Assembly: GCA_026390735.1 (NCBI GenBank)
Contig: JAPLFJ010000038.1
Location: forward strand, 5,062-69,061
Length of the DNA stretch: 64,000 nt
From: Ignavibacteriota bacterium
GTDB lineage: Bacteria > Bacteroidota > Ignavibacteria > Tepidaquicellales > Tepidaquicellaceae
Reading direction: 5' to 3'
This document shows positions 23,590 through 33,833 of the stretch, one piece after another. Both the position numbers and the translations under genes were made by a program. The notes under the pieces were generated by a model. It had not been told where the DNA came from. It saw only the letters and a list, made by a program, of their open reading frames with translations, and made no database searches. Position 1 is the stretch's first letter. Each line of letters opens with the position of its first letter.

Positions 23590-23616
23590 GTCTTTCCAGC
23601 GAAAGCTGGAATCCAG
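23590..23616. repeat. 27-nt hairpin repeat, copy A (left border of AT-rich block)
   Basis: gtctttccagcgaaagctggaatccag. 24/27 identical to the reverse complement of 29510-29536. Two of the three differences are compensatory within the stem. Confidence 0.85.
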
Positions 23617-23627
23617 ATTGTATATTT

Positions 23628-25658
23628 TTACCTAGCTATTGTATAAGACATTAATTCTTTTTCAGTTTCAAAATTAGATTGAGTAATAGCCGACCTAACT
23701 AAAACCAAACCAATATCGGGAGCATAATATTCTTTATAATAATCTTTACCAATGACCAAACAATTATAAAAAGTCCCCGCACTAGTAATTACTCTTTCTT
23801 CATATCCTAAAAATCTTAATTGAAAGCCATAGACTATCCATTTAGTAAGACCGTCCAAAGGAAAGGCAATTTTAGTATAAGAATATTCACCTATCATTTT
23901 ATTGTAACCTTTATAAATTAATTTGTTGTTATCTAATAAATAAGTCCCACTTTCTTTTAAATATACTTGATTTACTTGATAAGCGGAATAATTAATATAA
24001 TAATTTATTAAGACTTTTGCATAATTATTTCCATCATCCTCCCCAAAGACGTCTTCTAAATACGAAGCAGAATTATTTACTTGCCAATATAATAATTTAC
24101 TCCCTATCTTATGAGAAGGAAAATATTTATTGATAATCCGCAAATCATCATCTGACAACTTATATGAAAGTGTTTTAAGTCTTTCTAAGTTAGTTTTGTA
24201 TAATTCTTTTGGTTCAATTTCATATGCTTTTTCATAATATTCATTAGCCTTTTCATAATTCTTTTGTTTATCATAAATAACCCCGATATTATTGTAGGCA
24301 ATACTTGAACTTGGATTTATTCTTATACATTCAAGATAATAATGCAAAGCTTCTTCAACATTCCCGATTTTATCATAGCAATATGCAGTCCGAAATGTAA
24401 TTTTTAAATCTATTACATTATAATCTTTTTCTAATTTTAAATATTCTAAAAGTGCTTTATCGAATGATTTCGATTCATAATACTCGTCTGCATTATCAGA
24501 AATTTTCTCAATTTCTTTCTTTATCTTTAAATCTTCTTGATCTTTAACATAATTTTTTTCCCTATCACTATTAATAATATTATTATCATAAATATTAAAA
24601 CTATATAAATTGTCCGTTAATATATAACAATTGCCATTTGATTGAACTTCTACCGAACGTATATAATCTCCTATAATCAAATCAATCGATTCATATGATT
24701 TACCTCCATCTAATGTTCTGAATAAAAGATTCTCATTTAACCAAATTAACCCAACATCTTTATTAATAAATTTAAATTTTACATTAAAATTATTGTTAAG
24801 CTCTTTAATAGGAATCCAACCAGACCCGCCGTTAGTTGTTTTTAACAAATAACCTTTAAATTCTTCTCCATTAATTATTTTTGTGCAATAAACATATCCA
24901 TTACTCTGATCCAAAAATTGAGGTTCATAAATATCTTGATATTCTTTTAAACCGTTTGCTCTTTCCCAGCTTTCTCCACCATCTTTTGTTTTAAACCAAA
25001 AGACATTACTATAGTTACTGGATTTAAATCTACCTCTGGCTTCTTCAACATTTAATCTTCCATAGCAAAATCCATTATAACTATCTAAGAAATATATTCT
25101 ACAATCGTTTGAAGCAAATTCATCCTTTTTCTTAATCTTTAAAATATTATTAAAATTGAAGAAAAATTGAGAATCCCAATTTCTTCCATAGTCCTTTGAT
25201 TTGTAGATAATATAGTCATCATAATTATTATCCTCAAAATCTATTTTCTTTATTTCGTTACTAAATTTTTCTGGAAACATATATTCGGCCAACCCTTCAG
25301 CCATTTTCCATGATATTCCTCCATCAAAGGACCATAAATAAACATCTCCAACACCATATTCATGGATTAATGCTATGATATTGTCTTTTATGAATAATCG
25401 ATGAAAAATATTCTCTTTGCCATATAATATCTTTATCTCTGAGTAAGTTACGAAATTATCAGAAGATTTAAATAGTCTTGATTTATTAAGACTATCATCT
25501 TCGATTAATAAAAAGCACAGACTATTATTTGATACTTTAATATCTAAGAAACTATCGCTATAAACTGGAATCGGGAGATTAATTGTTCTAATGTTTTGTC
25601 CAAAAGATACTTGACTAATAAACAGCATAACTAATACATAAATCGTTTCTTTCTTCAT
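23628..25658 (-). CDS. Secreted BNR-like beta-propeller + TPR + C-terminal beta-rich domain protein
   Basis: Signal peptide MKKETIYVLVMLFISQVSFGQ (internal Met preferred over track start 25691). Blades SFDGGISW, SKDYGRNW, TKDGGESW, TTNGGSGW and TLDGGKSY. TPR-like segment ALHYYLECIRINPSSSIAYNNIGVIYDKQKNYEKANEYYEKAYEIEP. Confidence 0.7.
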   Translation of the reverse strand: MKKETIYVLVMLFISQVSFGQNIRTINLPIPVYSDSFLDIKVSNNSLCFLLIEDDSLNKSRLFKSSDNFVTYSEIKILYGKENIFHRLFIKDNIIALIHEYGVGDVYLWSFDGGISWKMAEGLAEYMFPEKFSNEIKKIDFEDNNYDDYIIYKSKDYGRNWDSQFFFNFNNILKIKKKDEFASNDCRIYFLDSYNGFCYGRLNVEEARGRFKSSNYSNVFWFKTKDGGESWERANGLKEYQDIYEPQFLDQSNGYVYCTKIINGEEFKGYLLKTTNGGSGWIPIKELNNNFNVKFKFINKDVGLIWLNENLLFRTLDGGKSYESIDLIIGDYIRSVEVQSNGNCYILTDNLYSFNIYDNNIINSDREKNYVKDQEDLKIKKEIEKISDNADEYYESKSFDKALLEYLKLEKDYNVIDLKITFRTAYCYDKIGNVEEALHYYLECIRINPSSSIAYNNIGVIYDKQKNYEKANEYYEKAYEIEPKELYKTNLERLKTLSYKLSDDDLRIINKYFPSHKIGSKLLYWQVNNSASYLEDVFGEDDGNNYAKVLINYYINYSAYQVNQVYLKESGTYLLDNNKLIYKGYNKMIGEYSYTKIAFPLDGLTKWIVYGFQLRFLGYEERVITSAGTFYNCLVIGKDYYKEYYAPDIGLVLVRSAITQSNFETEKELMSYTIAR

Positions 25659-25712
25659 AAGATTATAATATAAATGAGTAAAATTATTCAATAATTCATA
25701 TTTTATTATTAA

Positions 25713-26108
25713 TTAATTGTCATTCAAATTGGATTCTTTAAAACTATTATTTAATTCCCATTCACAGTTTTTATCAACTGGATCATATTTATCTAGCCCT
25801 CTATTATATATTTCGTCAAATACCTCTTCTAAATTAATATGTCGTTCAAAACTAACCCGATAAAGTGTTGCAGGGTTAATTTTGAAATTATAATTTATTG
25901 TTGGTACATATTCCCAAACATCCCCTTTTTGTTCTTTTTCGATATAAACACTTATAGGATTATTATCAAACTGACCCTTAAGAAATATAGAGAAATAATC
26001 GGCATCATTTATTCTTATGTCAAAACGTATTTTACCTATTTTGTCGGAATATTTCTTGGCAAGATAATCTAAATCTAGTCTTTCAATTGAATTCATTTCT
26101 TTGTTCAA
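25713..26108 (-). CDS. Hypothetical protein (131 aa), no motif recognised
   Basis: Long ORF co-oriented with and closely spaced to its neighbours. Very AT-rich. Confidence 0.5.
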   Translation of the reverse strand: MNKEMNSIERLDLDYLAKKYSDKIGKIRFDIRINDADYFSIFLKGQFDNNPISVYIEKEQKGDVWEYVPTINYNFKINPATLYRVSFERHINLEEVFDEIYNRGLDKYDPVDKNCEWELNNSFKESNLNDN

Positions 26109-26161
26109 ATAGTTTGTATTAATTATTCTATTAGTTATTTAACTAAAATCCACAGAAAACA

Positions 26162-27619
26162 TTAATGCTTATACTGTTCTGCTCTAAGCAGTGAAGCAAC
26201 TGTTATTGGTACGATTTCTATTTCGCCGTCTTTATCAAGTCTGCGGATTTCCGTCATTGCATCTTTTGTGAAGTCGAACGAAACGAAGTATCCTTTTATT
26301 CTTCCGTCTCTGCGAATTGCTGTTTGAAATGAATCTATGTCTGGTCTCCCGACTTTATCCATTTGCTTCACCTGAACAGGATAGTATTTGTCTGTATCGC
26401 CGAATAAATCCTTTTCTTCTTTCTTCTTCTTTTCAAGTTCTACGGGATAAAGCTTTCCGTCTATACCAAAGTCACCGGATTTAATTTTATTCGGAATGCC
26501 GGACATATTTGTAAGTTGTCCAAGAGCGATGACGGCCCAGTTCTGAAATTCAAAATGCGGAAGGATTCGAAGGTCTTCTTCAGTTTTCGGAAGATCATCC
26601 ACCCAAAAATCTGTTCCCTCACGAAGTTTATACAATTCATAAAGTCTTTGTCCCATCACACGGCAGGCAGTTGGGGAAATATCCACTCCAATCCATTTAC
26701 GATTTAGTCTTTGAGCGGCAACGAGAGTTGTTCCGCATCCGCAAAAAGCATCAAGAACGACATCACCTTTGTTAGAACTTGCATTTATAATTCTTTCCAT
26801 TAATGCAATTGGTTTTTGTGTAGGATAGCCAAGTCGTTCTTTGGCGGACGGACTAAGAGATTCAATGTCATCCCATAATGTTTGTATTGAAACTCCTTTC
26901 CCATCTTCAAGATATAGTTTTCTTTGCGGAACCGTTCCCGGCTTCGTTTGAACTACTAAACCGTCCTCAATTAATTTATTCATTTTCTCTTTTGAATATC
27001 TCCAATATTTCGATACACCTAATACTTCATAAAAAGGATTGCCTTTCGAACTTCCACCAGGACCAATCATGCTTATAAGTCTATATCTGCGACCATCACT
27101 TTCTTTATATTTATAAAAATTATCGAGATATTCAGAAGTGTACTCTTTAAACATTGGGTTAAATGTATAATCTGTCGTTTTTGTATAAAAGAATATATTA
27201 TCAATATTTGGGCTCCATAATTTACTGCCTTGTCCAAAATTACCTTTTACGGTATTTGCTCTCTTCCAAATTATTTCATTCCTAAAATAATTAAACCCAA
27301 ATATCTCATCAAGCATAATCTTAACGTAATGCGAGGCGTGCCAGTCGCAATGATAATAAAAACTTCCAGTCTTTTTAAGCACACGATAAATCTCACTTAC
27401 TCTCGGTCGCATATAATTAATGTATTCCTGAGCATCGCCAAACCTGTCATTGAAAGCTCTTTTCTCCTGCACGTCTCCCCAGAACACTTCATAATTCCTG
27501 TTGGAATTAAAAGGAGGGTCAATATAGCAAAGGTCAATACTCTCATCGGGCAAATCTTTTAACATCTTGATGTTATCCCCGCAATAAATCGTCTGTGTCT
27601 TTAATTGGTATGAGGTCAT
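26162..27619 (-). CDS. Beta-class N6A/N4C DNA methyltransferase fused to a C-terminal Mrr-type PD-(D/E)xK restriction-endonuclease-like domain
   Basis: Motif IV IDPPFNSN lies near the N-terminus and motif I VLDAFCGCGTTLVAAQRLNRKWIGVDISP comes later (order IV->I, beta class, PF01555-like). The C-terminal approx 150 aa read FEFQNWAVIALG...GDFGIDGKL...YPVQVKQ...KGYFVSFDFTKDA, matching the Mrr_cat pattern (D...QxK). Confidence 0.85.
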   Translation of the reverse strand: MTSYQLKTQTIYCGDNIKMLKDLPDESIDLCYIDPPFNSNRNYEVFWGDVQEKRAFNDRFGDAQEYINYMRPRVSEIYRVLKKTGSFYYHCDWHASHYVKIMLDEIFGFNYFRNEIIWKRANTVKGNFGQGSKLWSPNIDNIFFYTKTTDYTFNPMFKEYTSEYLDNFYKYKESDGRRYRLISMIGPGGSSKGNPFYEVLGVSKYWRYSKEKMNKLIEDGLVVQTKPGTVPQRKLYLEDGKGVSIQTLWDDIESLSPSAKERLGYPTQKPIALMERIINASSNKGDVVLDAFCGCGTTLVAAQRLNRKWIGVDISPTACRVMGQRLYELYKLREGTDFWVDDLPKTEEDLRILPHFEFQNWAVIALGQLTNMSGIPNKIKSGDFGIDGKLYPVELEKKKKEEKDLFGDTDKYYPVQVKQMDKVGRPDIDSFQTAIRRDGRIKGYFVSFDFTKDAMTEIRRLDKDGEIEIVPITVASLLRAEQYKH

Positions 27620-28431
27620 GATACGAAATCGCTTAATTTTAATATTTCTAATTCTTTATAAAAATTATGTTTGTTCTTAATTTGTAAAATTTGATTAGTC
27701 ATATCTTTTTCCAAGAAAACTGAATCAACATAGGGAAAAGCACTTGAAATATAAACATCATTAACATCCGAAGGCTTAGGCTTTCTATGTTTCAAATAGA
27801 ATTTGTAAAATCTAATCAATGTCATAGATTTTAAAGATAAAAACTTATCATAATTTAATGGTTCTCTTAATTTAATCTTATTATCAACAAATTCTTTATA
27901 AATGCCAAATAATATATTATGCATTTCGGAAGTTAGCCAATTATTAATATATCGTTTTTCCAAGAATATATTTTCACTTGGGTAACTATTTGATTTCTTT
28001 ACCATAGCATTGAGCACAAATGGTTTAAGATCTCTATTCCTTTTGAAATTTTCTGAAATAATATTTTGAGTGAATATATCTTTAAATTCCTTATAATAAT
28101 CAGCACCTTTAAGCATATTTACGAAAATTAGTATTGGATCAATTTTATAATTATCGTTTTCATAATTATTAATTTCTTCATCTAATAACATTTCATCGGT
28201 TTTTAATAATATTGTAGGCATAATACTGGTATAACTTATGAATTCTTCGAATATATCTTTACAAATTTCCATTTCCTCAATATTCTTAATCGAATAACAG
28301 AATAATCTCTGCTCTTGTAGGAACTTTGGAACAATAAACGAACCTAATTCCTCTTTGAACTTCAAAAGTTCGCTAATAATACAAGTGTCAACTAAACATA
28401 ACTTATAATATAATCCGCCTAATTCAATCAA
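27616..28431 (-). CDS. Hypothetical protein, tentative PIN-like nuclease with large insert
   Basis: 271 aa. N-terminal CLVDTCIISELL and C-terminal DVNDVYISSAFPYVDSVFLEKD resemble the first and last acidic strands of PIN domains. Stop overlaps the MTase start (ATGA at 27616-27619). Confidence 0.4.
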   Translation of the reverse strand: MIELGGLYYKLCLVDTCIISELLKFKEELGSFIVPKFLQEQRLFCYSIKNIEEMEICKDIFEEFISYTSIMPTILLKTDEMLLDEEINNYENDNYKIDPILIFVNMLKGADYYKEFKDIFTQNIISENFKRNRDLKPFVLNAMVKKSNSYPSENIFLEKRYINNWLTSEMHNILFGIYKEFVDNKIKLREPLNYDKFLSLKSMTLIRFYKFYLKHRKPKPSDVNDVYISSAFPYVDSVFLEKDMTNQILQIKNKHNFYKELEILKLSDFVS

Positions 28432-28449
28432 TTTTTATAATAGCCATAT

Positions 28450-29043
28450 TTAATTAAAATCATCATTTTGCTCTGCGTAATCATTGTCTTCTTTATATTC
28501 CTCAACTAACTGAATTGTAAATTCAACAAGGACTTGTCTTTCATAATCAGTCAAGTATTGTATAAGTTTTTCAAGTTTCTCAATACTTGTATTTCCAATA
28601 AGATTTTCGTCATTGTCTTCCAAGTTTTCACTATTATATGGCGCCGAAGGAATATATTCTATTAGTTGAAATAAATCTTCAATAGTATCAGCACCAATAA
28701 AATCTCTTATCATTTCTTGAATAATTGGTAATTGATCAATTCTATCATCCGTATCTTTTCTTTTAAACTTTCTTCTTGCATGCTTTGGGATTGTTCCTTC
28801 CAAAGTATTTACTTCTGGCTCTATTAATTTATATTCTTCTTCTTTAGGTGATACTTCATCTATAGGCAATTTATCTGCACTCGGTAATTCCTCTTTAGGA
28901 ATCTCAACTTCCTTCCTTAATACCTCTATTGGTAATTCTTCTTCCAATATAAGATTTGAATATTCTAGTTTCTTTCGCTTTATGTATTTAGCAAAACCAA
29001 TAAAGCCCATTGATAGTACTAATATTGCAAATAACTTTTTCAT
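28450..29043 (-). CDS. Membrane-anchored, strongly acidic protein (single N-terminal TM)
   Basis: 197 aa. MKKLFAILVLSMGFIGFA followed by KYIKRKK, then E/D/P-rich sequence with EELP-type repeats. Confidence 0.55.
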   Translation of the reverse strand: MKKLFAILVLSMGFIGFAKYIKRKKLEYSNLILEEELPIEVLRKEVEIPKEELPSADKLPIDEVSPKEEEYKLIEPEVNTLEGTIPKHARRKFKRKDTDDRIDQLPIIQEMIRDFIGADTIEDLFQLIEYIPSAPYNSENLEDNDENLIGNTSIEKLEKLIQYLTDYERQVLVEFTIQLVEEYKEDNDYAEQNDDFN

Positions 29044-29429
29044 AATTGTTTTGTTAAATGTAATAATATTTGTTCAAATAGTGAGTCAAGTGATGGTTTA
29101 AACGTACTTGATTTAGAAAACTCAGGATTTGTTTCGATCAAATTATTTGCGAATCTAATACGCATAATATCGCCTATTGATTTTGAAATTGATTCTATTT
29201 TATTTACAGGGAAATAGAAAGTCTCAAAGTGTTCGTTTTCAAAAACAAAGTAGATTAATAAATTATTTTCGAAGTACAATAATTTATTACTTTTTACTTC
29301 CTTATATGCATGTTCAAAATAATAATCTTTATTTCCTTTTAAATGATTCGTTAGTTCAGTATGAACATCAACATTTAGTAAATGTTTAGATGTTCTACTT
29401 AATAAATCCCATATTTTATCTGCTTTCAT
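29040..29429 (-). CDS. Hypothetical protein (129 aa), first gene of the cassette
   Basis: Stop overlaps the next start (ATGA at 29040-29043). No motif recognised. Confidence 0.5.
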   Translation of the reverse strand: MKADKIWDLLSRTSKHLLNVDVHTELTNHLKGNKDYYFEHAYKEVKSNKLLYFENNLLIYFVFENEHFETFYFPVNKIESISKSIGDIMRIRFANNLIETNPEFSKSSTFKPSLDSLFEQILLHLTKQL

Positions 29430-29509
29430 TTTTGTATTCTTTAATTTATTACAAACTTATGAAATCAATTTCAGTTTTCATTATCATTTCGTGATAATTT
29501 TTAAAGACT

Positions 29510-29536
29510 CTGGATTCCCGCTTTCGCGGGAATGAC
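29510..29536. repeat. 27-nt hairpin repeat, copy B (right border of AT-rich block)
   Basis: ctggattcccgctttcgcgggaatgac, in inverted orientation relative to copy A. Fits ATTCCC-N8-GGGAAT. Confidence 0.85.
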
Positions 29537-29693
29537 AAAGGGTGATTTGAACTTAAATAAAAAAATGTAAAATGGAGCAGTTTTTCTTTAATAATATTAT
29601 TCTCCCTTACTTCTAAATTACTAAAATTAATTTTTTATTACAACGGATTATAATATTATATATATTTAGTTGTCTTTAATTGAGGTTTTGACA

Positions 29694-29790
29694 AGTTACT
29701 CTTCTTTCTCAAGCAGGATGATTGAGTTACACTTCTTTCCTCAAGCAGGATGTTCACCACGGCGAATCTATGACTTGAGTTACTCTGCTT
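29694..29790. repeat. Tandem approx 31-nt repeat, 2 full + 1 partial copies
   Basis: agttactcttctttctcaagcaggatg (29694-29720), agttacacttctttcctcaagcaggatg (29725-29752), partial gagttactctgctt (29777-29790). Confidence 0.8.
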
Positions 29791-29822
29791 TTAAATAAAA
29801 GCGCCCCGGGATCCGGGGCGCT
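29789..29822 (-). terminator. GC-rich rho-independent terminator of the FN3-domain gene
   Basis: gcgccccgg-atcc-ggggcgc stem. On the minus strand it is followed by ttttatttaaaag. Confidence 0.8.
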
Positions 29823-29878
29823 TAACTGAATTTGGTGGGTAAAAGTGTTTCTTGTTTTGTCAACCCACCCTATTTTGT

Positions 29879-30496
29879 TTATTGTACTCTGCTTGCGGCT
29901 TCACTCCAGGGTCCGTATCCGTTTCGGTTTGCCGCTCGAACGCGGAAGAAATACCGGACTCCTTTGATGATGTTATCATCTATGAAACTGATTTTTGATG
30001 TTGTTTTGAAATAGAATAATTGTGGAATGTTTGTCAGGTCTGTTGATACTAAACTTTGACCTTTCTGCCACTCGTATGAGTCTGCATTTTTATCCCTTGC
30101 TTTAATTCCGATTAAGAAACCTTCTGCATCGGAATCATCTTCGAGGACGACTGCAAGTACTTCGGTTGGCGGAGGAATTTTGCTTGGGTCTTTGCGGGGT
30201 TTCATTCCATATTCCGCAAGTTTATCAGGTTGGTTTGCATAGATTGCATATGCGAATGTTTCGCATTGGCTTAGCAAACTTTTTGATTCTGAATTCTGGA
30301 GAGATCCTGAATGGCGCGCAATTACAGAGGCAGACTCTGCGGCGTCGATTGCTTCGCCTTTTGTTGTTAAATCTGTGATAGAACTCTGAACATCGGTTGA
30401 TTTTACAGGTTCGCCTGTCCAGTCAGTTGGGTTTTTCTTCATTCCCTGCAGGAATGCGTTTAACCTGTTCAAGGTTTCGAGAATGTACTTTTTCAT
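29879..30496 (-). CDS. Cytoplasmic-looking protein with C-terminal fibronectin type III domain
   Basis: 205 aa. C-terminal ...GVRYFFRVRAANRNGYGPWSEAA is a classic FN3 F/G-strand pattern. No signal peptide. Strong SD (ggaagg) upstream. Markedly higher G+C than its surroundings. Confidence 0.7.
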   Translation of the reverse strand: MKKYILETLNRLNAFLQGMKKNPTDWTGEPVKSTDVQSSITDLTTKGEAIDAAESASVIARHSGSLQNSESKSLLSQCETFAYAIYANQPDKLAEYGMKPRKDPSKIPPPTEVLAVVLEDDSDAEGFLIGIKARDKNADSYEWQKGQSLVSTDLTNIPQLFYFKTTSKISFIDDNIIKGVRYFFRVRAANRNGYGPWSEAASRVQ

Positions 30497-30828
30497 TTTG
30501 TACCTTCCTTCTAAATTAGTTTTTAAAAAAGTTCTTTTAAAATTTACAGTTAAAATTATTCCGTTTAGAATATTTTAAGAGTAAAACTTATTTAGAAACA
30601 CTTGAAACCTTTGAATTCAGTTATAGTTTTTTGTAGTAATAACAAAATATTGTATTAATAATTAATTGTCAATATAAAAAGTTAACTGTTGTTATAATAA
30701 TTATTTATGAATATTCTAATGACAAATCTCAATAATAATAACATTATATTTTCCTAAAAAGACCAACAACATTTTTGTATTTTCCGTTAAAACCGCAAAT
30801 ACAGCGAGGAATCCACTTTATTTCCCAA

Positions 30829-31090
30829 AAATGTGCACATTTTTGGGAACATTTTGCACATTTTTGGGAACATTTTGTATATTGTTCGGAACATTTTGCA
30901 TATTGTTCGGAACATTTTACATATTCTAATTTACAATCGGCAAATTCTAATTTACATTTTGCACTTTCTAAATTACATTTTGCATAATTTTCGGAACATT
31001 TAGCACATTCTAATTTACATTTTGCATATTCTAAATTACATTTTGCACAATCCAAATTACATTTTGCATAATGTTATTTACAATTTAAGT
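30829..31090. repeat. Array of about 12 degenerate 21-bp tandem repeats (core cattttgcaYaWt...)
   Basis: Exact 21-nt register from 30850 to 31080 (30850, 30871, 30892, ... 31060), with partial units at both ends. ORFs are open on both strands, as expected for a simple repeat. Confidence 0.9.
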
Positions 31091-31119
31091 GTTTTAAGGC
31101 AAGGTTTTAAATTTCAGGG

Positions 31120-31153
31120 AATAAAAAAGCCGGTTTTACCAAATTACCGGCTT
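31120..31153 (-). terminator. Rho-independent terminator (minus strand)
   Basis: aagccggt-tttaccaaatt-accggctt. The minus strand reads stem then ttttttatt. Confidence 0.65.
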
Positions 31154-31439
31154 TCGCAATTTTTGCATATCAAATATTTGATTGGCATCTCAATTTGATG
31201 GATTAAAGTATTATATAATTATATAAGTATCAAGCAATAAATTTAGTAAGATATCGAAATCGGTATTTCGTATCATCGTTTATCCTGTGGAAACCATTGC
31301 GTGAGAATTTTATGTTTCGGTTTATCTTTATTGATTCTTCAACGTAAGAAAGAAACTTTGAGTATTTCATCGTCAATGGATTGAACTTCCCTATTAGTTG
31401 ATTACTTTTCTTTTAAAAAATATAAAACGGGAAGATTCT

Positions 31440-31958
31440 TTATTTCCTCAGATGAAGATATCCGCCGCGATGAGGAATTGATGGCTGGTATGTAACGAAT
31501 GCTTTAGGGTCTATCTTTTCTATAATTTCCATAACTTCTTTCTGGCGCTTGCGTGGAATTAATGCAAGGATGATTGCAACACCTCCGCTGGCACCTTCAC
31601 CGGGAAGGATTGTTACTCCGAAATTATTTTCGCGCAGAGCGTTTGCGATATCGTCCGGATAGTTCATTGAAAAGACGTTTAGCCAGACGTGACCTGTTCC
31701 TATTTTCTGTTCGATTGTAATTCCGATAATTGTACCGAGTGCAAAGCCTCCTGAATAAGCAAATACGTTCACCCAGTTATCGAGGTGCGACATGACACTG
31801 CTGATTGCAACAACCCAGATTGTAACTTCCACGAAACCGATTGCCCCAGCAATGTATTTTTTGCCCTGCACGGTGATTATCATTCGTATTGTTCCGAGCG
31901 AAACATCAACGATGCGTAATGACATAATCATAAGGGCGTACAGCACGACTTCAATCAT
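31440..31958 (-). CDS. UPF0316 / DUF2179-domain membrane protein
   Basis: 172 aa. RIVDVSLGTIRMI, three TM segments, and a C-terminal DUF2179-like GVTILPGEGASGG...KAFVTY. Confidence 0.7.
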   Translation of the reverse strand: MIEVVLYALMIMSLRIVDVSLGTIRMIITVQGKKYIAGAIGFVEVTIWVVAISSVMSHLDNWVNVFAYSGGFALGTIIGITIEQKIGTGHVWLNVFSMNYPDDIANALRENNFGVTILPGEGASGGVAIILALIPRKRQKEVMEIIEKIDPKAFVTYQPSIPHRGGYLHLRK

Positions 31959-32173
31959 TTTATTTGTCTCTCTTTGTATAAATCGTTTAGCTCGTCAATC
32001 ATTCTGTTTATGTCATCTTCAGAGAAATTCTTCTTTATTAGCACTTCTTCAAGCGTTCCCCATCTTGCATCACCCGAGACAAGCAATTTTACTTTATGTT
32101 TCATAAAGTAACTTGTTGAAGCAGGAAATGTGAATATCAGTTCCTTTACAGTTATCTCACGTGTTATTACCAT
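31955..32173 (-). CDS. Small DUF1858-like protein (Cys-less variant)
   Basis: 72 aa. The ITREITVKELI...FMKH...GTLEEV...IDELN pattern resembles DUF1858. 4-nt overlap with the downstream gene. Confidence 0.4.
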   Translation of the reverse strand: MVITREITVKELIFTFPASTSYFMKHKVKLLVSGDARWGTLEEVLIKKNFSEDDINRMIDELNDLYKERQIK

Positions 32174-32174
32174 T

Positions 32175-33278
32175 TCAGATGAGTTTTTTAAATTCGCGAA
32201 TGAATGCTTCGTTCTCTTTCATCAAACCCATTGTTATACGCAGACAGTTTCCGAGACCGAATGCTTTGAGCGGACGAATGATTACTCCCTGACGAAGAAG
32301 TTTCTGGTTTATGTCAGTAACTTTTTCTTCAGTTAACATATCGAGCATTAAAAAGTTTGCGTACGTAGGAATAATTTTAAATATACCTTTTTCTTCATAA
32401 GGTTTTAATTCACCGAGGAAATATTCAAGACCCTGTTTATTAAGTGCTAAAGCTTTATCTATAAAATCATCGTCTTCGACTGCACCTGTAGCTGCTGCCT
32501 GAGCAAGAGTATTCGGTTCAAATGGAAGTTTTGTCTTCATTAAAGTCTCAACTATAAAGTCGTGGGCAAATCCGTATCCGATACGAAGCCCTGCAATGCC
32601 GTAAATCTTAGAGAAAGTTCTGAGAGTAATTACATTATCATATCGGTAATCGATTGAATCCGGATATTCTGGATTTCCCATTGCGTATTCGAAATATGCT
32701 TCATCGAAAAGAATAATCACATCTTTCGGAACATTAGCATAGAATTCTTCAAATTCCGATTTCGTGATTATTGTGCCCGTAGGATTGTTAGGATTGCAGA
32801 GATAAATAATTTTAGTATTCTTATTAATCTTATTTGTAATCGCGTTCAAATCAAATTTATAAGTTTCGCGTGACATCGGAACGTAGTGAGTAGCATTATT
32901 TCTTCCCATTGCGAGAACCTGAAAACCGATAAATGTTGCTTCGGAAGTAATTATTTCATCACCGTCACAAAGAAAGCAACGGAGAATATTTGCCATTATA
33001 CTTTCGCTGCCGCTTCCGACAGCAATGTTCTTAACGGGTATATTAAACTTCTTTGAGATTTTTTCGCGCAGGTCAACTGATCCAACATCAGGATAACGGT
33101 TTATTTCACTTACGAATCTATTCTGTGCTTCAACAGCGCGGGGTGAGGGCCCAAGCGGGTTTTCATTGGATGCAATTTTGTGTATTTCTTTCAGACCAAA
33201 CTCTTTTTGGAGCTCTTCAATTGACTTACCGGGGACATACGGTTTCAGATTCTTTATAAAATCAGGTGTCTTAAACAT
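32175..33278 (-). CDS. hisC: Histidinol-phosphate aminotransferase
   Basis: 367 aa. SNENPLGPSP, NPNNPTG and TFSKIYGIAGLRIGY (PLP lysine). Confidence 0.85.
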   Translation of the reverse strand: MFKTPDFIKNLKPYVPGKSIEELQKEFGLKEIHKIASNENPLGPSPRAVEAQNRFVSEINRYPDVGSVDLREKISKKFNIPVKNIAVGSGSESIMANILRCFLCDGDEIITSEATFIGFQVLAMGRNNATHYVPMSRETYKFDLNAITNKINKNTKIIYLCNPNNPTGTIITKSEFEEFYANVPKDVIILFDEAYFEYAMGNPEYPDSIDYRYDNVITLRTFSKIYGIAGLRIGYGFAHDFIVETLMKTKLPFEPNTLAQAAATGAVEDDDFIDKALALNKQGLEYFLGELKPYEEKGIFKIIPTYANFLMLDMLTEEKVTDINQKLLRQGVIIRPLKAFGLGNCLRITMGLMKENEAFIREFKKLI

Positions 33279-33407
33279 AGAATAAATTTTAAATTAGCCT
33301 AAATTTAGTGTTTATTAAGTATTTAAAAAATGATATTTTTGAGTCATTAATAAATTGTAAAATTTGAAATAAATATTTAATTTCAAGTAATCAAAACAAA
33401 AGACTAA

Positions 33408-33833
33408 ATGGCAGACGAATACAAAGGCATTAAAACATTTGACCAGAAGGAATGGGTAAAAGAAAATTTATCCTACAAGAAAGACAGCGGCAGCTGGGCG
33501 TGGATTTTTCACAGAGTTACAGGACTTGCACTTATCGGTTATTTGTTCTTACACGTTTATTCACTTAGCACTTTGACTTCAGGGAGAACAGCCTTTGAGA
33601 CAAAGATGCAATCGTTCCTTTCTCCGCCGCTCTTAGCATTAGAGTGGTTCTTATTCATTATTGTGCTTTTCCATTCACTGAACGGAGTAAGAATAGTTTT
33701 AGTCGACTGGGCAGACGGAGCGAAATACCACAAAACATTGTACCGATTTTCGTGGATAATAGGAATAATATTATTCTTATTGATGGGATACATTATGTTC
33801 TCACACGAAATTTTAAAATTCTTTGGAAAATAA
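33408..33833 (+). CDS. sdhC: Succinate dehydrogenase/fumarate reductase cytochrome b subunit-like
   Basis: 141 aa, 3 TM. FHRVTGLAL and HSLNGVRIV histidine motifs. Confidence 0.65.
   Translation: MADEYKGIKTFDQKEWVKENLSYKKDSGSWAWIFHRVTGLALIGYLFLHVYSLSTLTSGRTAFETKMQSFLSPPLLALEWFLFIIVLFHSLNGVRIVLVDWADGAKYHKTLYRFSWIIGIILFLLMGYIMFSHEILKFFGK

Follow-up and report, generated by a model that had tools for sequence, protein, structure and literature searches.

The window analysed here is a 64,000-nucleotide stretch of a contig from an Ignavibacteriota bacterium, and at positions 30822-31088 it contains a tandem array with a period of 21 bp whose units run head to tail (Table 1). Approximately 340 bp downstream of this array, on the same strand, lies a gene for a 205-residue protein with a C-terminal FN3 domain, and the interval between the two is taken up by a conserved block of sequence and an AT-rich leader. 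At its other end the array is preceded by the rho-independent terminator of the upstream DUF5698/DUF2179 gene, the minus-strand terminator that an earlier reading made from the letters of the window by themselves (hereafter the sequence-only reading) had placed next to the array. Terminators also precede the arrays of three related loci (L010, L011 and L014).

Table 1. Features of the array module and its surroundings in the window
Feature	Position	Strand	Basis
AT-rich accessory island downstream of the FN3 gene (TPR protein, MTase-Mrr fusion, PIN-like, others); context, outside the array module	23590..29536	-	GC 26-31%; Pfam; absent in G011 and G014 at the locus
Gene for a 205-aa protein of an uncharacterised family: residues 3-95 form a long helical hairpin, 116-204 a C-terminal FN3 domain; no signal peptide	29879..30496	-	AF2 model; fold and profile searches
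AT-rich leader from the array block to the gene; strong Shine-Dalgarno-like AGAAGGAAGG before the ATG	30497..30783	-	Sequence
Sigma-70-like promoter TTGACA-17-TATTTT, ~150-175 nt upstream of the gene start	30644..30672	-	Consensus scan, 10/12
Conserved post-array block GCACATTTTTGGGAAATAAAGTGG...CGCTGTATTTGCGGTTTT; TTTG (30826-30829), 22-nt spacer, TGTATTTG (30796-30803)	30784..30836	-	Conserved in L010, L011, L012 and L156-L160
Perfect 28-bp palindrome: last unit plus inverted partial unit, at the gene-proximal array end	30822..30849	.	Inverted-repeat search, 14+14 nt, 100% complementary
Tandem array: 11 units x 21 bp (GCAAAATGT core + 12 variable nt) plus 1 degenerate distal unit; 42-/84-bp higher-order periodicity	30837..31088	-	Tandem Repeats Finder; unit register; conservation by position over 79 units from the genus
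Rho-independent terminator belonging to the upstream DUF5698/DUF2179 gene, separated from the array by ~35 nt	31123..31151	-	GCCGGT-N11-ACCGGC + TTTTTT, minus strand

Tandem Repeats Finder reported 4.4 copies of the 21-bp period at 30834-30925, with a 91% match and 0% indels, and 9.3 copies at 30891-31086, and it also recovered the array at periods of 42 bp (5.3 copies) and 84 bp (2.2 copies, 86% match). The detection of these two longer periods indicates that the higher-order sub-families are real. Three to four recurring types can be told apart among the variable 12 nt of the units, and the sub-types occupy neighbouring runs (TCCCAAAAATGT twice, TCCGAACAATAT twice with one further copy, and AATTTAGAAT or AAATTAGAAT six times). 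The sequence-only reading had described about 12 units exactly 21 nt apart with sub-types in adjacent runs, and both descriptions stand: 11 units and one degenerate unit follow each other at exact spacing without indels, and the runs agree with the sub-type order and with the periods of 42 and 84 bp. The array it delimited is likewise real, but its start fell inside the palindrome, which reaches 7 bp further to the left. This palindrome (TTCCCAAAAATGTGCACATTTTTGGGAA) carries no T-run. Imperfect, palindrome-like versions were found in G007, L165 and L160 only, and an inverted repeat is present in 4-6 of the 32 related arrays.

A genome-wide check located the array once in its own genome with no second copy, which settles the question raised by the sequence-only reading of whether the unit occurs elsewhere there. 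To give an idea of the background, lag-21/42 autocorrelation of at least 0.49 was reached by 1 of 600 random 700-bp windows of the same genome (0.2%). One near-identical contig was found, and it ends inside the array. When tandem repeats of at least 3 copies were tallied across this genome, their periods peaked at 7 (55), 11 (58), 14 (23), 21 (15) and 22 (19), which are multiples of 7 and of one helical turn. An array of palindromic 21-bp units (ACCCGCCCAGAGAGGGTTTTT, 6.9 copies; G000 C50:62443-62589) sits between genes for 158-aa and 131-aa proteins on the same strand.

The array-FN3 module is accessory and is located in a variable hotspot beside defence genes. The DUF2179 gene was found in 15 out of 15 genomes of the genus with a different downstream content in each, and this variability after the DUF5698/DUF2179 gene marks the site as a hotspot of integration or replacement (31440-31958 in the window, together with the side downstream of it at 23.6-31.1 kb; the compared loci were L224 and L239-L245). 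The closest relatives, G011 (97% identity) and G014, lack the segment at approximately 23.6-31.1 kb, which comprises the array, the FN3 gene and the AT-rich island, and possess a gene for a 181-aa membrane protein in its place; synteny in this way bears out the earlier placement of the array at the edge of an accessory segment. The genes that follow the FN3 gene are co-oriented and of mixed kind, including those for secreted proteins and lipoproteins, toxin-antitoxin or defence-type genes, and IS elements.

The AlphaFold2 model of the FN3 protein has a pLDDT of 91.6, and fold searches with the protein match FN3 domains only. Searches of Pfam, NCBIfam, PADLOC and PHROG returned no family for it beyond a weak fn3 match, and the candidates of a known defence, phage or DNA-binding protein were set aside, with no match beyond the FN3 fold. 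The protein is cytoplasmic; its N-terminal half appears near-neutral on reading of the sequence, and no DNA-binding domain was seen in it. Searches for its family gave 46 homologue clusters and, in a large library, approximately 45 full-length clusters at 50% identity; the family was found in 11 of 401 sampled Ignavibacteria genomes. Homologues exist in G007 and G013, and arrays of the window's unit family precede both of them. At the syntenic locus of G013 (L012 2553-3169, G013:C16) the FN3 gene is split in two frames (residues 1-106 and 100-205), which makes it a frameshifted pseudogene unless the assembly is in error there; the array of 15 units before it is intact.

Arrays upstream of the FN3 gene family

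The main finding of this work is a link between the array and the downstream FN3 gene, which the sequence-only reading had missed. We scanned the 700 bp upstream of each distant homologue (31-57% identity, from metagenomes and genomes) for autocorrelation, and found that the strongest signal lay at a lag of 21 or 42 in 33 of the 35 loci having at least 250 nt of upstream sequence, 32 of them reaching 0.49 or more (several of the metagenome loci are near-duplicates, and about 28 loci are non-redundant). The remaining two loci lie on contigs that end too soon, one of them beginning exactly at the post-array block. The same array-before-gene layout is seen in the whole genomes of G007, G120 and, three times over, G388. 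Polarity is fixed: every array precedes its gene on the strand of that gene, and both the conserved block and the terminal unit, diverged or inverted, are found at the end nearer the gene. Across the family the copy number ranges from 5 to 16, the true period of many related arrays is 42 nt, and the distance from array to start codon spans 68-527 nt. A universal motif in all units was looked for and rejected: no k-mer is common to the loci beyond composition, and the units are mostly unrelated.

The layout is also shared by a second family. The bacterium's own genome encodes two distant paralogues of the FN3 protein, on C56 (208 aa) and C58 (215 aa), which are homologous to one another at E = 4.5e-14 and are linked to the window's family by a protein of G035. 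Both display the array-gene layout with 21-bp units different from that of the window, as do their relatives in G006, G267 and G388. In these modules, which lie outside the window (G000 C56:232877-234041 and C58:190494-191526), 21/42-bp arrays (GGAATCACGGCAATTCCGTCAGCGGAAAGGCAAATCCTGTC; GGAGCAATCTAACCCTAAAAT) are found some 240-390 nt upstream of the helical-plus-Ig/FN3-like paralogues, and the C56 gene is followed by three genes for secreted proteins. Given that the units are unrelated and that the layout is kept in the paralogues, the conserved entity is an upstream array of period 21 or 42 with polarity, rather than a sequence or a frame. The array is most likely a control element for the FN3 gene. 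A fixed period combined with a free sequence, kept beside one gene family in more than 30 loci and again in a paralogous family, constitutes a clear signature of functional array-gene pairing. Upstream tandem repeats in bacteria are usually taken as noise or as strain-typing markers, and our literature searches for such arrays in Ignavibacteria found no description of an array-gene pairing. The array also matters as an experimental handle on an Ignavibacteria accessory gene family that is often beside defence and secreted-protein genes.

Several promoter-like sequences were found close to the gene-proximal end of the arrays, all of these promoter calls being consensus matches only. The post-array block of approximately 55 nt (composed of CACATTTT, about 8 nt, AAAGTG, about 10 nt and GC(T/C)ATTTTTG(A/C)GGTTTT) resembles a -33/-7 promoter of the Bacteroidetes type and could have promoter activity, and the word TAnnTTTG is enriched approximately 2-fold at -75..-25 of genes in the bacterium's own genome, in the sense orientation only. 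The TTGACA-17-TATTTT sequence sits 150 nt downstream of the block, and a TTGACAAT motif is conserved at about -170 in L156-L160. In L180, a locus of group II, a stretch of 37 nt separates the end of the array from the -35 of the sole sigma-70-like promoter of the region, which lies downstream. Comparison across loci revealed no conservation upstream of the arrays, promoter-like sequence included. Promoter-like sites just downstream of the arrays fit a DNA-level upstream element.

Two broader architectures were tried and rejected, namely the GCGG/TAnnTTTG promoter block as a feature of all groups (it is confined to group I) and direct repeats with a terminal inverted repeat as the general arrangement (confined to the window's subgroup). 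A potential stem in the post-array block, CAC(A)TTT/AAAGTG, shows one clean double change only, and we make no claim of covariation for it. In L177, L180 and L183 a short hairpin is found before the Shine-Dalgarno sequence, approximately 35-50 nt upstream of the start codon, and is kept through two-sided stem changes (CGCAG/CTGCG, CGCGG/CCGCG and TGCAG/CTGCA); this group II hairpin is probably a structured 5' UTR element. The loci L157-L160, from a peat metagenome, contain a dispersed REP/MITE-like hairpin element (TTGTCATTCCAGC...GCTGGAATCCAGACGAAAAATGAGGTTTTTT) inserted both up- and downstream of the arrays, the stem sequence of which differs between copies.

Comparison of the window with G007 gives a measure of constraint on the units. 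The two loci encode proteins that share 50% identity, their four-fold sites have reached saturation (0.25 identity), and the array units match at 18 of 21 positions, as against a 99th percentile of 14 in the null. Judged by this comparison, the unit core is conserved beyond neutral expectation. A tally of 79 units (8 arrays) gives 92-100% conservation at positions 4-9 and 17-18, of which only positions 17-18 are independent evidence, since the units were chosen by their match to the core at positions 1-9. In L156-L160 the genes are 80% identical and the units are nearly unrelated (with the exception of L157 and L158, whose units are identical), which points to fast turnover. Related arrays are present within the same genus in G013 (at least 4 loci), G007 and G009, with the unit family at 2-4 or more loci in each, and arrays of the window type with no FN3 gene nearby are located upstream of secreted BNR-like proteins (L010, L011 and L014-L016, in G009 and G013). 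From this turnover, and from the occurrence of same-family arrays at other genes, it follows that the arrays are dynamic and open to exchange or relocation, with the array itself being kept before the FN3 gene.

A collection-wide scan for CAAAATGT at 21-bp spacing returned plasmid iterons, a dispersed Acidobacteriota element, cyanobacterial repeats and others, a yield close to what chance would give for any 8-mer among many 21-bp arrays and hence uninformative as to the family of the array. The Acidobacteriota element is present in dozens of dispersed copies of approximately 150 bp (L027-L135; CAWDRP01, MAG MFD04492.bin.1.1), in each of which three CCAAAATGTC(C/A) boxes, spaced 21 bp apart, precede a conserved tail (GGTCAATTTGTTCT...TTTGTTTTCAATAACTTGG), and it resembles the sub-terminal binding-site cluster of a mobile element. 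The 4-5 direct repeats of 21-22 bp (ACAAAATGTCGGCTTATAAAA and similar) on small plasmids or contigs (L037 262-350 from the Carnobacterium plasmid pTMP28-5, L084, and L023/L049) have the appearance of ordinary theta-plasmid iterons and bear no relation to the array of the window.

Coding potential of the array

A period of 21 nt is also one of seven codons, and the minus strand of the array could be read as a 103-aa Cys-rich heptad-repeat peptide, (AKCxLEY)n. The frame is open over 103 codons, and a gene caller predicted a 105-aa product from it on a Logan contig. The AKC frame, however, has no ATG, its first start being a TTG at 31055 inside the second unit. In this frame the homologous arrays of L015 and L016 replace the TGT of the window by TAA, units of 23 and 19 nt in L010 (+2/-2) shift the frame out and in again, and none of the six frames is open in the arrays of L137, L173 and L180. 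The 34 arrays compared from the wider family have no strand or frame in common that is consistently open; some open frame exists in 25 arrays on the sense and 27 on the antisense strand, with neither strand preferred. Mean information at codon positions 1, 2 and 3 amounts to 1.15, 1.20 and 1.21 bits respectively (79 units, 8 arrays), an even distribution that carries no wobble signature, and a search for a Pfam family for the heptad peptide found none. On the strength of the in-frame stops, the frame-breaking units, the closed arrays and the flat third position we rejected the heptad peptide, a coding role being extremely improbable, and these comparisons lead us to regard the array as non-coding. 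For annotators this means that calls of a 'Cys-rich heptad protein' on such arrays are spurious.

The sequence-only reading had come to the same view of the array by another route, which does not hold. It argued from both strands being open, and this is accurate for the AKC frame of the minus strand (save for the missing ATG), but the plus strand is open only piecewise, in stretches of 70, 56 and 58 aa in different frames. Moreover, the commonest unit in the genus (GCAAAATGTTTCCGAAAAAGT) has zero stops in all six frames, so that openness of either strand is uninformative; what upholds the non-coding verdict are the stops and frame breaks in relatives. The synonymous-biased variation among homologues that it had named as a sign of coding was not seen, as the even information per codon position attests.

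Other identities were also considered. Rfam gave no match at the gathering score in the window, with only sub-threshold, terminator-like matches nearby, and no tRNA was found. A CRISPR array, which would have repeats of 23-55 bp with unique spacers, was rejected, because the units abut head to tail and their variable 12 nt recur in 3-4 types.

Candidate functions of the array

The best explanation, which we hold tentatively and with slightly less than even confidence, is that the array may be a DNA-level cis-regulatory platform, providing binding sites on the same face of the helix upstream of the FN3 promoter. The module would consist of the period-21 (or 42) array, the leader with its promoter-like sequences, and the gene for the 205-aa helical-hairpin/FN3 protein. 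Units two helical turns apart would place many copies of a sequence-specific factor on one helix face, and in the window's subgroup the last unit together with its inverted copy would form a dyad operator abutting the promoter-like block. Occupancy of the array would then set the level of FN3 gene transcription, with a reservoir or cooperative filament activating the gene, or else repressing it. Factor binding, the identity of the factor and the sign of regulation are what we infer in this scheme. In its favour are the arrays at 33 of 35 homologous loci over a 0.2% background, the fixed polarity of a non-coding array, the constraint on the unit (18 of 21 positions against a null of 14) where four-fold sites are saturated, and the promoter-like sites directly past the array in both L180 and the window with no promoter-like conservation upstream. 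The sequence-only reading had offered a regulator array on one DNA face or iterons; the former is now the best-supported reading, and origin-type iterons find no support, since Rep and Par genes and a DnaA box are lacking and the context is chromosomal. Against a cis-regulatory platform stand the FN3 protein, which has neither a DNA-binding domain nor the look of a DNA binder, and the lack of a motif common to the loci, which makes a single conserved trans factor unlikely. Furthermore, the window's subgroup alone has the terminal inverted repeat, the array-to-start distance varies (68-527 nt), the units turn over fast and same-family arrays occur without the FN3 gene (L010, L011, L014-L016), and the sense strand of the arrays shares the A>T and purine skew of the gene, as would fit transcription through the array.

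This last property leads to an alternative that we consider unlikely, if still a live one, in which the array is transcribed in the direction of the gene and the RNA, perhaps cut into 21- or 42-nt units, partners the FN3 protein. Sense-strand AT skew is +0.20 in the arrays, -0.02 just upstream and +0.21 in the gene, and this resemblance between array and gene is a hint of transcription through the arrays that keeps the repeat-RNA model alive. Type III toxin-antitoxin systems are defined as a tandem array followed by a short palindrome and then a protein gene, with antitoxin repeats of 31-62 nt in 1.9-5.6 copies (PMC3401426). The layout of the locus agrees with the published definition, a 28-bp palindrome (one with no T-run) comes right after the window's array, and the 42-nt period of many arrays falls within the antitoxin range. 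As with ToxI repeats, the units differ between homologous loci; the module is accessory and neighbours defence, toxin-antitoxin and IS genes; and the group II hairpin, its stem changed on both sides, lies approximately 35 nt before the start codon. On the other hand, the FN3 protein bears no similarity to ToxN, CptN or TenpN, no nuclease-like invariant residues and no toxin match in Pfam, PADLOC or NCBIfam, and its arrays, at 5-16 copies, exceed the type III range. The sigma-70-like promoters are downstream of the array with nothing conserved upstream, and terminator-like hairpins between array and gene (7 of 32 loci) are as frequent as in the antisense control, such that a consistent terminator at this position was rejected. 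Strand-specific RNA structure was rejected as well: the two strands of the window's array fold equally (z = -4.6 and -4.7), and across arrays the sense RNA is the more stable in only 11 of 29.

Quite unlikely, in our view, is a hitchhiking minisatellite that propagates itself by slippage or unequal crossing-over, has no function for the gene and has simply inherited its 21-bp period. The 42/84-bp structure and the adjacent runs of sub-types are signatures of unequal exchange, turnover of the units in L156-L160 outpaces that of synonymous sites, the unit family is also represented by arrays at other loci of G009 and G013 that lack the FN3 gene, and periods of 7, 11, 21 and 22 are common among tandem repeats of the bacterium's own genome. 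Yet without selection it is difficult to account for the retention of arrays in 33 of 35 loci, whose proteins share only 31-57% identity with the query, and in a paralogous family. Fixed polarity, a conserved adjoining block and a unit core conserved where synonymous sites are saturated speak against a minisatellite too. Very improbable is a purely architectural role, whereby repeats of two turns would add bends in phase, and the resulting curvature would modulate the promoter or recruit nucleoid proteins. In-phase bending would explain why the period is held at 21/42 and the sequence is not, and in a wedge model (with nominal angles) an idealised consensus array is strongly curved at a period of 21 only (end-to-end/contour 0.66, versus 0.88-0.97 at periods of 19, 20, 22 and 23) and 13 of 26 arrays are more curved than their own shuffles. 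The window's real array, however, is straight in the same model (z = -0.13) and half of the arrays are not curved, uniform intrinsic curvature being unsupported; the conserved 9-nt core is left unexplained. Slimmer still is the prospect of an iteron-type replication origin or partition site of an integrated element. The classical iteron-plasmid layout (pPS10- and R6K-type) combines direct repeats of about two turns with a promoter-proximal inverted repeat and an AT-rich stretch, all of which the window possesses, and the collection scan returned plasmid iterons with the CAAAATGT word (L037, L084). By contrast, genes for a Rep, Par, integrase or relaxase protein were absent from module and island alike in Pfam and PHROG scans, no DnaA box TTATCCACA at up to 1 mismatch was found in 27890-33750, the modules are flanked by chromosomal housekeeping genes, and only 4-6 of 32 related arrays have the inverted repeat.

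Comparison with known repeat systems

With MIRU/VNTR-type minisatellites the array has in common an intergenic position, higher-order structure, fast turnover and, in some genomes of the genus, related arrays at several loci. It departs from them in being linked to a single gene family, always with the same polarity, at more than 30 loci, in being unique within its own genome, and in its shorter unit of 21 bp. Iteron plasmids of the pPS10, R6K and pSC101 type likewise have direct repeats of approximately 21-22 bp on one helical face, and the window's subgroup adds to this an inverted repeat copy by the putative promoter of the downstream gene, followed by an AT-rich stretch. Unlike these plasmids, the module is chromosomal and without a Rep initiator or DnaA boxes, its protein has no known DNA-binding fold, its copies number 10-16, and most family members lack the inverted repeat. 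In the parC sites of R1 and pSK41, arrays of direct repeats lie immediately upstream of the par operon that they regulate and are cooperatively coated by a small protein. The array resembles these centromere/operator sites in being made of upstream tandem direct repeats, and differs in that the module has no NTPase of the ParM, ParA or TubZ type and no RHH or ParR-like protein, and does not reside on a plasmid.

The type III toxin-antitoxin systems (toxIN, cptIN and tenpIN; PMC3401426) differ from the module in several respects. The FN3 protein is not a ToxN-like endoribonuclease; the unit measures 21 nt (42 in many relatives) rather than 31-62, in 5-16 rather than roughly 2-5.6 copies; and the gap between array and gene is often long, with no consistent terminator and with promoter-like sites inside it. 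The two are alike in that a short, non-coding repeat array stands upstream of, and co-oriented with, a gene for a protein of about 150-200 aa, and alike too in their locus-specific repeats and in their accessory loci beside defence genes; in the window a palindrome, though one with no T-run, comes after the array. Although distinctly improbable, it is conceivable by analogy that array and FN3 gene together make up a new class of two-part repeat-RNA/protein module in the defence hotspots of Ignavibacteria, in which cleavage of the array transcript would yield 21/42-nt units, and the cognate FN3 protein would bind these through its variable helical hairpin. Such a module would be an analogue of type III and abortive-infection systems with a non-nuclease effector of a different fold.
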